DNA of 64,000 bases from an uncultured Rhodospirillales bacterium (GCA_902763185.1 CACWQT010000001.1:3406-67405), one strand, 5' to 3'. Positions 40,874 through 50,588 are shown, numbered from the stretch's first letter. Numbers and translations are program-made. The notes: generated from the letters alone by a model not told the origin.

Positions 40874-42952
40874 ATGCCCCTCATAGATGTCAAAAGCATT
40901 ACCGAAGATGAAGCAAAAAAGCAATTGGAATATCTAGCAAAGGAAATAGAAAAGGCTGATATTGCTTATTATCAAAATGATGAGCCCTATCTTGATGATG
41001 CTAAATATGATGAACTCCGGCACTTGAATTTGGCGTTAGAAGCAAAATTTCCGCATCTTATCAGACCTGACAGCCCGTCAAAGCGAATCGGTGCAAAGGT
41101 CAAGAGCGAGTTTAAAAAGGTTGATTTGGCTGTGCCGATGCTTTCGCTTGCTGATATTTTTGAGGATACGGAAGTCGCGGACTTTATTATGAGCATTAAG
41201 CGCTTCTTAAACAGTAGCGATGATGTGGTCTTTACATCCGAACCTAAAATGGACGGGCTTTCTTTTTCGGCACTTTATGAAAATGGTGTGTTTGTGCGTG
41301 GTTCTACACGCGGAGATGGACGAATCGGTGAAGACATTACAGAAAATCTTCGCGAAATAAAAGGTTTTCCTCTCTTTTTGGATAAAGATGTGCCGGAAAG
41401 ATTTGAAGTCAGAGGCGAAGTGTTTATGTCAAAAGCTGACTTTTTTGCACTTAATCAGAAAAACGAGGAAGAACATAAAAAACTTTTCGCCAATCCGCGT
41501 AACGCGGCGGCTGGTTCGCTCAGGCAGCTTGATGCACGTATTACCGGAAAACGGAATTTAAGTTTTATTGTTTATACTTGGGGTGAAGTTTCCGATGTTT
41601 TTTGGAAGAGCCAAGTGGAATTTTTGGATTATGTTCAAAGCCTTGGTTTCCCTGTTAATCCGTATAATAAAGTTTGTCATAATGAGCAGGAATTACTCAA
41701 CAGTTATCGCTTATTGATGGATAATCGGGCGGATTTGCCTTATGATATTGATGGAATCGTTTATAAGGTTAATGATTTGGAGCTTCAAAAGCGGCTTGGC
41801 TTTTTGACGCGCACGCCTCGCTGGGCGATTGCCCATAAATTTCCGGCAGAAAAGGCGATAACTCGGCTTAATAATATTCGGATACAAGTCGGAAGAACCG
41901 GTGCTTTAACACCTGTTGCGGACTTAGAGCCGGTTAATGTCGGTGGTGTTTTGGTTTCACATGCCACACTTCATAACGAAGATGAAATCAAGCGTAAAGA
42001 TATACGAATCGGAGATATAGTGGTTGTGCAACGTGCAGGTGATGTTATCCCGCAAATTATTGAGGTTTTGAAAGAAAAACGCCTATCTGATTTGGCTGAA
42101 TTCTCTTTCCCGACAATTTGTCCGGAGTGTGGAGCACATGCTATCAGAGAAGAAGATGAAGCTGTCAGACGTTGTACCGGAGGACTTTCTTGCCCGGCGC
42201 AGGCCGTTGAGAGATTAAAACATTTTGTTTCTCGCGAGGCTTTTAATATTGAAGGTTTGGGAGATAAAGTTATTGAAGATTTTTACAAAGAAAAAATCAT
42301 ACAAACACCTTATGATATATTCACTTTAGAGGAGAGAAACCGCCCACAGGATTTGTTTTCTACTGATGTTTCCCTTAATTTGGAAAATCGTGAAGGCTGG
42401 GGTAAAAAATCTGTCAGCAATCTGTTTGAGGCTATTAACAAAAGCAAAAATATCACTCTATCAAAGTTTATTTATGCCTTAGGCATCAGGCAGGTCGGCA
42501 CGGCAACTGCTTATCTTATTGCCAGACATTATCATAGCTTTGAAGTCTTTAAGGAAGCTATGTGTAATCAGGATATACACCTTCTTATCAGTATTGACGG
42601 TATCGGCGCGGCAATGGCAAAAGATATCGTAGAGTTCTTTAAGGAAAGCCACAATTTGGCTATTATTGATAAATTGCTTTCAGTTATCCGGGTAGAAAAT
42701 TTTGATGATGTTATTGCAACTGATTCCGTGTTTTCAGGCAAAACACTTGTATTTACTGGAACATTAAGCACTCTCACACGCAGTGAAGCCAAAAGCAAAG
42801 CTCTTGCATTAGGCGCTAAAGTAGCCGGTTCTGTTTCTAACAACACAGATTATGTTATTGCAGGTGAAAGCGCCGGCTCAAAATTAACAAAAGCCAAAGA
42901 ACTTGGAATCAAAATTATCTCTGAAGAAGAATTTATTGCAATGACGGTTTAA
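40874..42952 (+). CDS. ligA: NAD-dependent DNA ligase
   Basis: Adenylation motif EPKMDGLS, zinc finger CPECGA...C, HhH repeats, and a C-terminal BRCT ([10 protein letters not shown]...). Confidence 0.95.
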
Positions 42953-43724
42953 GTGCTTTCTGTTTTTTATAGAAGATTTTATAGATACTGATAGCCGTAA
43001 TATTAAAATAGGTGGTTAAGATTGGTATAATAAAGAATAAGCTATCTGTTTTGCAGATAGCGTCTATACCGTAAGATATTACATAAAGAGAATTAGTTAT
43101 GCCGAAATAGATTACAAAAGACCAATAATTCCCCTTTGTTTTCTTATATGCATCAATGATTGAGCGACTTTTACCAATTAAAGATGACAACCATGCTAAG
43201 TATGGTCGGCTTATTGTATATGGTGAAATTAGGAGTAATATAATAAAAAACATCAATTTCCCAGGAATGGCATCGTAGCTCTCAATAAAACTCATATAAC
43301 TTTCAAAGCATTCCAAATATTTATCCCTAAACCCCATAAACATCGGCACATATGGTATTGTTATAATAAAAACGTAAAGAAATATATTTATGAAAAGTAT
43401 TTTACTGGTCGGAATTAACCCATTCATCGTTCTGATTAAAGAAAAATAAGGGCGATGTTGCTGAATATAGCGCACAAATATACACCAATATACATAATAT
43501 GCTACCAACCATAAAATACTTAATGAATTAGCCCACCCACGCGGAATTAGCGTAAAGATATAAAGAAGCACATAATTTGCCAATAGCCACAATATTATTG
43601 TCTTTTTATACATCCATATAAATTTGTTGGCTCCTTTAAATACAGCCCATAAAGAGAATTCTTTGCTGTCTGTATCTGGTAATTTAGGCTTCATCTTCTT
43701 CAAATTCGGTATCCTCTTCAGCAT
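42933..43724 (-). CDS. Hypothetical polytopic membrane protein (last gene of the T4CP block)
   Basis: About 6 hydrophobic helices rich in aromatic residues, with no family recognised. Its 3' end overlaps the ligA 3' end by 20 nt, and its 5' end overlaps the T4CP gene. The alternative ATG at 43694 shortens that overlap. Confidence 0.55.
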
Positions 43725-49310: not shown

Positions 49311-49379
49311 ACAAACAATTTATATGCTTCATTTTAACAGAAAAACTAACATTTGTCTACTTTAAAAAAGATAAAAATA

Positions 49380-50588
49380 TCAGACTTTTAATTTTTTTAC
49401 AAAGGCACCGATTTTTTGATTTGCTTTTACACCATCTTCCGGTGTTACTTTAATTAAACCAAAAAACTTAGGCTTAATTTTTTCCATTTGAATTGGTGAG
49501 AACATTGCCGGATTTTTTACTAGTGCTTCAAAAGAGCCATCCGCATCCTTTTGCGCTGCTCGAAAATAATTATTTATCAGGCGATCCACATCTATTGGAA
49601 AATTTTTCTCTTTTAATTTGGCAATAAATAATTTCTTACGTTCTTGTAATTCCATATACTCTTCATAAAGTTCTCTCTTTATTCTGTTTTTTATCATAAG
49701 CTCTTTCTTTTGTTCATAGCTTACTTCACAAATTTCTATGTCTATCAGTATCTCCACATATGAAATAATCGCTAACTGCAAATCTGTATCATTTAGGGTT
49801 TCAGCGAATGACAAATAGCCTTCATCATCAGCATCAGGTGCCAATCTTTTCATATCTTCCGGTGCATATTTATTGATTATATCCCAACAAGCAAGTAAAT
49901 ATTCGGCAATTTTTTTGCCAATACTCGGCTTATAATTAGGAATTAACATATCCGGCACATAGTCCGTTTGTGGTAGCTTTAGATTTTTTTTCATAGATAT
50001 TACTGTCATACTATCTTGAAAATTCTTAATTTTTTGCGCCAATTCATACTCTTCTTCTTTTAGTCCGCGCTCTTCTGCCGCTGGCTCTGCTTCCGGCGTG
50101 ACAAGACCATCTAATCCTCCATTTATTCCAGCTTGAGAATCATCCTCGGGGGTTACCAACTCATCCAGACTTCCTGATGTGCTTGGCGTAGGGGCTGATA
50201 CTAAATCGTCTAATCCACCTGCTGACTGTTCTGTTGTTTCTTGGGTTACAAATCCGTCTAATCCACCGGTAGGTTCTGTTGTAGAAGAAGAAACATAATT
50301 ATCAAGCCCTCCTGTTGATGTCGAAGATGTTTCTGTTACAAAACCATCTAACCCCTCTGTCGAAGCCGGCTGATTTTGCGATGTCATTAAATTATCAAGC
50401 GAGCTATCTGTTAAAGAAGAAGTTTCTGTTGGCTTTGGACTGCCTTGATTTACAAAATCGTTGAGTAATTTTGCAAATTCATCCTCCAAATTAATACCTA
50501 CGCCAGCATTTTGTTCCTTATTTTCAGTATTTTGGTTATTATCTTCGGGAGTTAGAAAGGAATCTAATCCGCTATTTTCATTTGCCAT
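49380..50588 (-). CDS. Hypothetical protein with eight [GS]LDxhh[TS] motif repeats in an acidic N-terminal half and a helical C-terminal domain
   Basis: The motif copies are GLDSFLT, SLDNLMT, GLDGFVT, GLDNYVS, GLDGFVT, GLDDLVS, SLDELVT and GLDGLVT, all within aa 7-164. The C-terminus is basic (...GAFVKKLKV). First gene of the block. Confidence 0.55.
   Translation of the reverse strand: MANENSGLDSFLTPEDNNQNTENKEQNAGVGINLEDEFAKLLNDFVNQGSPKPTETSSLTDSSLDNLMTSQNQPASTEGLDGFVTETSSTSTGGLDNYVSSSTTEPTGGLDGFVTQETTEQSAGGLDDLVSAPTPSTSGSLDELVTPEDDSQAGINGGLDGLVTPEAEPAAEERGLKEEEYELAQKIKNFQDSMTVISMKKNLKLPQTDYVPDMLIPNYKPSIGKKIAEYLLACWDIINKYAPEDMKRLAPDADDEGYLSFAETLNDTDLQLAIISYVEILIDIEICEVSYEQKKELMIKNRIKRELYEEYMELQERKKLFIAKLKEKNFPIDVDRLINNYFRAAQKDADGSFEALVKNPAMFSPIQMEKIKPKFFGLIKVTPEDGVKANQKIGAFVKKLKV

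Follow-up and report, generated by a model that had tools for sequence, protein, structure and literature searches.

A conserved operon around a VirD4-type coupling ATPase in gut Alphaproteobacteria, a possible recruitment module of a dispersed type IV secretion system

What does a type IV coupling protein (T4CP) do where no secretion channel is encoded beside it? This question is raised by 64,000 nucleotides of DNA from an uncultured Rhodospirillales bacterium (GCA_902763185.1 CACWQT010000001.1:3406-67405; "the window" below is this whole stretch), in which a VirD4/TraG-type coupling ATPase is encoded in a compact operon among housekeeping genes. Comparison with related genomes demonstrated that five of the operon genes form a core passed on vertically in hundreds of gut alphaproteobacterial species. 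We assign a probability of about 0.5 to the reading that the operon is the inner-membrane coupling and substrate-recruitment module of a chromosomal type IV secretion system (T4SS) with dispersed channel genes, in the style of the Rickettsiales.

A scan for open reading frames (ORFs) placed six minus-strand ORFs between ligA and rluD, with products of 402, 524, 163, 421, 740 and 263 amino acids (aa), referred to here as g402, g524, g163, g421, the T4CP and g263. An earlier note on this DNA had described six tightly spaced or overlapping genes at 42933-50588 on the minus strand between these flanks, and its coordinates and lengths were exact. In gene order from g402 to g263, the junctions measure +69, -4 (an overlap), +56, +19 and -41 nucleotides (nt; an overlap). 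The g402 start lies 85 nt from the divergent rluD. At the other end of the operon, g263 and the convergent ligA share 20 nt at their 3' ends (window 42933-42952), and therefore no terminator lies between them.

The 740-aa product (43684..45906; all six genes and the features within them are on the minus strand) was confirmed as a genuine T4CP, the one product for which the earlier note had named a family. It matched the Pfam family PF02534 (T4SS-DNA_transf) at an E value of 6.5e-59, with 200.4 bits against a cut-off of 20.1, and further matched PF12696 (TraG-D_C, 2.2e-22) and PF10412 (TrwB_AAD_bind, 3.7e-18), spanning residues 376-671. NCBIfam VirD4/TraG models also matched, with scores far under their equivalog cut-offs, and the protein is therefore a divergent member of the family. 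A phmmer search of the PDB sequences with the T4CP returned nothing. Hydropathy analysis identified two N-terminal transmembrane (TM) helices at residues 15-44 and 90-112, separated by a periplasmic loop of about 45 residues (residues 15-112 in all; 45571..45864). Alignment located the Walker A motif, APPGTGKT, at residues 168-175 (45382..45405) and the Walker B region, LFVLDE, at residues 537-542 (44281..44298; VLDEF at 539-543), and a charge count defined an acidic C-terminal tail at residues 721-740 (43687..43746).

Close relatives of this T4CP were present in 387 GTDB species genomes, nearly all of them metagenome-assembled genomes (MAGs) of uncultured gut or rumen Alphaproteobacteria; judging from NCBI labels, they probably belong to the GTDB order RF32. 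Loci were compared in 80 species genomes carrying the best 80 relatives, among which T4CP identity ranged from 68 to 88%. Across the 80 species, 339 of the 740 T4CP positions were at least 98% identical. Mean identity was 0.81-0.85 in the cytoplasmic motor versus 0.42-0.49 in the TM/periplasmic part, the least conserved portion of the protein. In the representative orthologs aligned, the Walker A motif was kept from the clade to plasmid VirD4 proteins, minor substitutions aside. The Walker B region was the same in a clade member (L036) and in the outgroups L088 and L089, and its D-E pair occurred in all aligned relatives but L092. The T4CP of L092 also has a degenerate Walker A (AAPGNNKT). The last 20 residues carried a mean net charge of -9.6, never above -5, in the 80 orthologs.

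Synonymous divergence (dS) was saturated, and nonsynonymous divergence (dN) alone was usable. The dN of the T4CP gene (0.09-0.12) was comparable to that of rpoH (0.09-0.11) and ligA (0.12-0.14). Values for g421 (0.17-0.23) were similar to those for rluD, g402, g163 and g263 lay at 0.30-0.38, and g524 evolves very fast (0.74-0.85). The T4CP is intact and under strong constraint; decay of its gene was ruled out by its dN and by the number of nearly invariant positions.

The gene order rpoH, rluD / g402, middle gene (the g524 slot), g163, g421, T4CP was found in every locus long enough to display it, with intact ORFs and tight junctions. The downstream g263 and ligA were restricted to a nearer subgroup and a few other loci. 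The guanine-plus-cytosine (GC) content of the operon equals that of its flanks. The idea that the block might be an insertion into the ligA-rluD interval did not hold, since relatives keep the same order beside rluD-rpoH, which marks it as a vertically inherited core locus. Synteny, composition and the lack of an integrase or repeats rule out a recent insertion or mobile element. Marks of an integrative and conjugative or mobilisable element were likewise missing from the locus: there was no integrase or relaxase gene, no att repeats or tRNA target, and neither an atypical composition nor a patchy distribution.

The gene immediately upstream of the T4CP gene, g421 (45926..47191), ends 19 nt before it and encodes a membrane-tethered nuclease-fold protein. 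About 900 homologs were found, every one annotated as hypothetical. The AlphaFold2 (AF2) model contains helices at residues 2-52 and 58-106, a disordered segment at 110-256 and an alpha/beta domain at 258-400 with a predicted local distance difference test score (pLDDT) of about 85. The N-terminal two-TM hairpin (residues 1-106; 46874..47191) is a module common to g163; in its loop, the residues of the pattern W33-x-F35-D36 ... H42-W43 ... W50 ... G53 are at least 97% identical in 79 orthologs. A basic stretch follows TM2, and under the positive-inside rule the C-terminal domain would be cytoplasmic. The disordered linker holds an acidic/aromatic linear motif at residues 180-196 (46604..46654), H-A-L-F-x-F-D-DDDFDLDFDF, also written FDDDDFDLDFDF, with the family form HxLFxFD...DDDFDxDxDxF. 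Conservation reaches at least 97% at H180, F183 and D195. All clade orthologs contain the motif, which L088 lacks; it is a candidate docking motif. The T4CP gene is translationally coupled to g421, whose nuclease-fold domain sits on a flexible tether of about 150 residues.

Pfam, Foldseek and conservation together identified the C-terminal domain of g421 (residues 258-400; 45992..46420) as a divergent NERD/PD-(D/E)xK, restriction-endonuclease-like domain. The match to Pfam NERD (PF08378) was below threshold for the window protein (16.7 bits against a gathering cut-off of 22.1; E 0.011). NERD matches at E up to 0.1 were obtained for 19 of 38 family members, the best at 3.4e-5. The best Foldseek match of the domain was 1y88 (AF1548; E 1.2e-3, probability 0.99), and the next were all PD-(D/E)xK nucleases: EndoMS, R2 RLE, N.BspD6I, Bax1 and Card1. 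Consistent with these matches, the AF2 model displays the alpha-beta-beta-beta-alpha-beta core order of the restriction-endonuclease-like fold. Across 79 orthologs, an outgroup among them, D283, D298, [K/R]299 and E300 hardly vary, and the same holds for the signature loops GDWLADEExFNxEEPLWFSExSHRxSPV and GNIINAEDM. The putative active site, D283...D298-[K/R]299-E300, has glutamate where the canonical (D/E)xK motif has lysine, a D...ExE-type variant that we take to resemble that of BamHI. A profile search of PDB sequences with g421 gave spurious low-complexity matches only.

The remaining four products, g402, g524, g163 and g263, had no match in Pfam, NCBIfam, PADLOC or PHROGs. The earlier statement that the T4CP has five unassignable partners thus stood for most of them and failed for g421. 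Its other descriptions were borne out: two membrane proteins with a common module, a polytopic membrane partner, a disordered N-terminus in g402 and basic C-termini on g402 and g524 that are conserved across orthologs. The soluble g402 (49380..50588), an ORF without a fold or family match, was present in 72 of 72 loci reaching that far. Its residues 1-172 are acidic and predicted to be disordered (AF2 pLDDT below 50), and residues 178-360 form a conserved helical domain with pLDDT above 90 over 180-320. A fold search with this model against PDB and BFVD yielded no significant match. Eight [GS]LDx[FLY][LVM] (GLDxFV) repeats in the N-terminus are lineage-specific, and most orthologs are without any. 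The C-terminus reads ...KKLKV, and the ortholog tail, [ILV]K[KNY][LV][KR][VAI], is net positive in every one.

The middle gene, g524 (47736..49310), encodes a soluble protein of 524 aa, or 520 aa from the start chosen by gene callers on the source contig. Its N-terminus is rich in Pro, Gly and Ser and, like that of g402, long and probably disordered. Apart from a conserved hydrophobic stretch (...DIFDWILF...), the long remaining part is helix-prone, and the C-terminal end is basic. Its slot holds an intact ORF of 427-771 aa in every locus, lies -40 to +30 nt from g163 in all loci but one, and encodes proteins that usually end in ...G(G)R. In L012, the N-terminus of the 710-aa middle-gene product weakly matched a J-domain over its full length (E 0.0018) but has no canonical HPD motif. 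By ORF analysis and hydropathy, g163 (47248..47739) is a small inner-membrane protein with a two-TM hairpin (TM segments 10-28 and 60-78) and a short basic cytoplasmic tail; an ORF of 159-179 aa occupies this position in nearly all loci reaching that far. BLASTP aligned it to the g421 N-terminus (E 3e-6, 29% identity over 89 aa), identifying a paralogous module. The last gene, g263 (42933..43724), overlaps the T4CP stop by 41 nt and encodes a polytopic, very basic membrane protein with at least four TM segments and a net charge of +20. It occurs throughout the nearer subgroup and, among the distant loci, in some (31-60% identity); elsewhere, an HNH-like/SUKH-like gene pair or unrelated genes take its slot. 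Thus, g263 is an accessory gene outside the conserved core.

No VirB, Trb, Dot, relaxase, integrase or pilin gene was found in the 64-kb window, and no oriT-like inverted repeats in its intergenic regions. These negatives, which agree with the earlier note, rest on precomputed Pfam calls, a Pfam scan of the remainder, tblastn with VirB4/8/9/10/11 and secretin probes, a prepilin-motif scan and a repeat scan. Among about 85 related T4CP loci, no VirB gene was found within 10 kb.

The nearest annotated relatives of the T4CP, 31-35% identical over the full length, are the VirD4 proteins of Sphingosinicella p1 and an Erythrobacter aureus plasmid. These relatives end canonical MobA/MobL-virB2...virB11-virD4 clusters on Sphingomonadales megaplasmids, and no homologs of the operon partners were found in the plasmid VirD4 loci. 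Intermediate lineages were recovered by an exhaustive search of 50%-identity representatives. In one of them, L091 (42% identity, 534-kb scaffold), the T4CP gene follows virB10-virB11 and faces virB4, virB8, virB9 and a secretin gene, with housekeeping genes around. The label "orphan" given to the coupling protein in the earlier note is therefore an overstatement, given this relative in a chromosomal VirB cluster and the isolated VirB3/VirB4 islets of gut Alphaproteobacteria MAGs described below. Relatives at 36-52% identity (L088, L175, L089, L090 and L092) are unlinked from VirB genes and lie in housekeeping contexts. The existence of VirB-linked relatives (31-42%) together with unlinked intermediates therefore points to descent from a channel-linked VirD4.

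The upstream partners of the unlinked T4CPs differ among the five outgroup lineages and are tightly coupled to them. L088 (52% identity) encodes, in order, a ribbon-helix-helix (RHH) protein, a clear g421 homolog and the T4CP, followed by HNH-like and SUKH-like genes. In L175 (51%), genes for a pseudouridine synthase and for an rpoH-like sigma factor lie near the T4CP gene; L089 (47%), labelled Rickettsiales, has a pilin-like ORF upstream. In L090 (40%) and L092 (36%), a pentapeptide-repeat protein of about 390-410 aa (L090 8772-10001, L092 7216-8376) abuts or overlaps the T4CP start, in the place of g421. The T4CP family became an islet of its own, whose translationally coupled partners vary between lineages. 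Of the partners in the window, g421 is the oldest, and g402, g524 and g163 are confined to the 387-species clade. L090 additionally contains Cas9-like (RuvC_III/HNH) and Cas1 genes (1-2444), about 8 kb from its 1013-aa T4CP relative.

In about 16 clade loci and in the outgroup L088, the gene pair directly after the T4CP is HNH-like/SUKH-like (L036 12235-12858 and 12752-13300; L088 12265-12903 and 12900-13334); the window has g263 there. The HNH-like protein, of about 185-212 aa, has the core NYNxHLKxPxxFGGx5NxxLIxxxPxHxxxH, and its best profile match was a weak one to the pyocin AP41 DNase, aligned with the catalytic HNH core of that enzyme (E 0.15). Its SUKH-like neighbour, of about 145-180 aa, gave SUKH-1/SMI1_KNR4 matches below threshold. 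The two look like a putative bacteriocin-type DNase/immunity pair.

Type-IV-pilin-like ORFs, with the N-terminus G|RSMVEMLGVLAIIGVL, were observed near the T4CP in eight clade loci (L018, L042, L048, L052, L056, L059, L076 and L080; 3-7 kb away) and two outgroups, L088 (13437-13880 on the plus strand and 13941-14279 on the minus strand) and L089 (9497-9958). In L092, a prepilin peptidase gene (PF01478; 10630-11334) lies directly 3' of the T4CP gene. The secretin gene of L091 (PF00263; 13410-14741) lies inside its chromosomal VirB4/8/9/10/11-T4CP cluster, and a secretin-like 541-aa ORF was seen in the T4SS island of L101 (3294-4919). To our knowledge, secretins are not canonical T4SS parts.

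A metagenome scan with a VirB4 alignment returned 80 loci, mostly isolated chromosomal VirB4 genes in gut and rumen assemblies. Their GC content (0.29-0.53) is similar to that of the operon clade (0.31-0.50). The L173 islet (9693-13094) consists of VirB3-like and VirB4 genes and a 224-aa gene without a Pfam family, flanked by parAB on one side and ileS/gidA on the other; the scaffolds measure 270-317 kb. In the L104 islet (9968-13016), VirB4 follows mrdA-rodA-topA-dnaG-ychF; the contigs with the L173 and L104 islets span 270-355 kb. The 90%-identity cluster mates of the L173 and L104 housekeeping proteins carry the NCBI label 'Alphaproteobacteria bacterium'. Collectively, the VirB3/VirB4 islets suggest a Rickettsiales-like scattered T4SS in gut Alphaproteobacteria. 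The L101 island was rejected as a channel for the clade, to which nothing links it; it is a self-contained T4SS island.

The proposal that the operon is a substrate-recruitment module for a T4SS encoded elsewhere, already put forward in the earlier note, is the best supported of the readings considered. Under this proposal, the T4CP would form a hexamer in the inner membrane together with the g421 and g163 hairpins, an arrangement analogous, not homologous, to DotL-DotM of Legionella. Basic partners would dock on the acidic T4CP tail and on the g421 acidic/aromatic motif. The roles of g402 and the g524-type protein would be those of adaptors or translocated substrates, and ATP hydrolysis would feed substrates to a VirB-type channel. 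Consistent with such docking, the charge complementarity between the acidic T4CP tail and the basic partner C-termini is conserved. The cargo is probably protein. The HNH-like DNase and immunity genes after the T4CP in many relatives suggest interbacterial antagonism, with delivery of antibacterial effectors, and life in the gut would favour antagonism that depends on contact. A DNA substrate is possible in view of the tethered nuclease domain.

Several observations weigh against the recruitment-module proposal. The TM/periplasmic part of a T4CP is thought to contact VirB10, and it is the least conserved part here. The VirB islets were seen only in gut alphaproteobacterial contigs other than the operon-bearing ones, and tetranucleotide composition did not link the islets to operon-bearing genomes. 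The only flanking gene common to islets and window is topA; the TopA beside the commonest isolated VirB4 type (L104) is 43-50% identical to the TopA of the window, and the islets may for that reason belong to a different family than the operon genomes. The HNH assignment is weak, with no Pfam match, and the gene pair is absent from this window. Finally, we know of no role for a cytoplasmic membrane-tethered nuclease domain in effector-translocating T4SSs.

That nuclease domain is central to an alternative that differs from the recruitment-module proposal mainly in its cargo, and that we consider unlikely while keeping it in view. The operon would then be a domesticated MOB-like module: g421, tethered to the membrane, would serve as a MOB_C-like nickase or DNA-processing enzyme and pass single-stranded DNA to the T4CP for export via a T4SS, resulting in chromosomal DNA transfer or DNA release. 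The direct coupling of the T4CP to a protein with a PD-(D/E)xK/NERD fold and an invariant acidic triad is consistent with this role, and MOB_C relaxases are themselves PD-(D/E)xK enzymes (PMC12857230). The ancestral VirD4 context is conjugative. In L088, the gene immediately upstream of the g421 homolog (8489-8767) is of the RHH_4 type, with the fold typical of auxiliary proteins of relaxosomes. However, tblastn with the g421 domain found no match at E up to 1 in 72,556 plasmids, no oriT-like repeat was found at the locus, and the putative active site is D...D-[K/R]-E rather than the canonical (D/E)xK. In addition, g421 is membrane-anchored, the operon occupies one chromosomal site across the whole clade, unlike a mobile element, and the MOB-like module would still require a channel, which was unobserved.

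The unobserved channel is the starting point for a further alternative, somewhat less probable again, in which the T4CP is a channel-independent, repurposed machine: either a membrane DNA or protein translocase, or a motor working with type IV pilin, prepilin peptidase or secretin components. Support for it comes from the lack of a VirB gene within reach of the roughly 85 T4CP loci, the unlinked T4CPs with different upstream partners in five outgroup lineages, the poorly conserved periplasmic loop, and the pilin-like ORFs of eight clade loci, L088 and L089 with the prepilin peptidase of L092 and the secretin of L091. But the pilin association is loose, at 3-7 kb and in fewer than half of the loci, with no example in this window, and the operon proteins alone give no outer-membrane conduit. 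Moreover, the 42% relative in L091 is plainly part of a VirB system, and we know of no T4CP that works without a T4SS. It is more doubtful still that a VirB-independent machine of this kind, whether a new inner-membrane translocase or a hybrid pilin/prepilin-peptidase/secretin motor, performs a core function in the whole order. Within the loci compared, no positive support was found for the repurposed FtsK/HerA-type system raised in the earlier note.

An anti-phage or anti-plasmid defence system is very improbable: a P-loop ATPase with a PD-(D/E)xK nuclease is a common defence architecture and the T4CP weakly matched PADLOC mads_8 (E 8.9e-4), but the other five proteins had no PADLOC match, no PHROG match was found, the ATPase is an unambiguous VirD4-family member, and defence islands are patchy and turn over fast, in contrast to a syntenic core locus under housekeeping-level constraint in hundreds of species.

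Elsewhere the window encodes housekeeping functions, with uvrC, pgsA, secDF, sufB, topA, dprA, bamA, lpxD, sufS, sucCD, glgP, fba, infC, ligA, rluD, rpoH, an RND pump and tgt. An Rfam scan of the window found one tRNA and otherwise no match. Adjoining secDF, window positions 8647-9594 encode a 315-aa protein that is essentially one autotransporter beta-domain (PF03797). A consensus scan identified a candidate sigma-70-type promoter, TTGTCA-17-TATATT, on the minus strand at 50661..50689, at the start of the divergent rluD and about 70 nt upstream of the g402 start; such consensus sites are no more numerous in the region than in shuffled sequence, and promoter support is weak.

The operon clade is widespread in human, ruminant and bird guts, and the interactions of its members with neighbours and hosts are almost unstudied. 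A literature search returned nothing on this clade combined with T4SSs, nothing on orphan T4CPs and nothing relevant on NERD domains and conjugation. Conservation of a T4CP operon to the degree of rpoH across hundreds of species implies that a secretion or DNA-transfer function is central to how these bacteria live. The operon adds four protein families without known relatives, and its combination of a VirD4-type ATPase and a membrane-tethered NERD/PD-(D/E)xK domain is unprecedented. If channel genes are confirmed, the operon would represent a second, non-homologous multi-subunit coupling complex, with testable docking motifs of its own; should no channel exist, this would be the first T4CP put to use without one.

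Among known systems, the T4CP is closest in build to the type IVA VirD4 proteins (Agrobacterium VirD4, R388 TrwB), with which it shares Pfam families, a two-TM anchor, a nucleotide-binding domain with Walker A and B motifs, an all-alpha domain and an acidic tail. It differs from them in being only 31-35% identical to its nearest annotated relatives, in not lying beside virB11 or a relaxase gene, and in belonging to a clade-specific operon. In CloDF13, the relaxase MobC is paired with a T4CP of its own, MobB. MOB_C relaxases, the family that includes CloDF13 MobC, are PD-(D/E)xK enzymes that form no covalent intermediate (PMC12857230). The likeness to MOB_C systems (CloDF13 MobC/MobB; pAD1 TraX) lies in the pairing of a PD-(D/E)xK DNA-processing protein with a coupling protein. 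In contrast to MOB_C enzymes, g421 is without sequence similarity to them, is membrane-anchored and has a D...D-[K/R]-E motif, with no oriT nearby and no mobile element.

VirD4 of the Xanthomonadales antibacterial X-type T4SS recruits toxic effectors that are encoded with immunity genes, and effector recognition by VirD4 is established in that system (PMC8740702). The putative DNase toxin/immunity pair directly after the T4CP in many relatives is reminiscent of that system. Unlike in the X-type system, no XVIPCD-type domain or effector family was recognised, the window is without the toxin pair, and the channel was unobserved.

In Legionella, the gene for DotM lies immediately upstream of the T4CP gene. 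The Dot/Icm coupling complex, DotL-DotM-DotN-IcmSW-LvgA-DotY-DotZ, is a multi-subunit T4CP platform in which the T4CP C-terminal tail and acidic/basic peptide signals mediate recruitment (PMC7280309). The operon resembles it in placing a TM-anchored partner with a cytoplasmic domain (DotM; g421) beside the T4CP, a layout that is analogous only. No Pfam or NCBIfam match to DotM, DotN or IcmSW was found among the partners, and the g421 and g402 models match no chain of a type IV coupling complex (T4CC) in PDB. In contrast to the Legionella complex, the T4CP is VirD4-like rather than DotL-like, the fold of g421 is that of a nuclease rather than DotM, and no IcmS/W-like chaperones were recognised.

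In the rvh T4SS of the Rickettsiales, the vir genes are spread over separate chromosomal islets, described as an 'archipelago' (PMC2653234). The present system differs in where the coupling-protein gene lies, which in Rickettsia (virD4) stays beside virB8-11 in islet C but here belongs to a separate operon with novel partners; the carriers of this operon are gut-associated uncultured Alphaproteobacteria, and few source records are labelled Rickettsiales. Like rvh, however, the operon is chromosomal, vertically inherited and alphaproteobacterial, and the VirB3/VirB4-only islets of gut MAGs resemble rvh islets A and E. If channel genes are confirmed, the 'archipelago' architecture of T4SSs would extend beyond the Rickettsiales.

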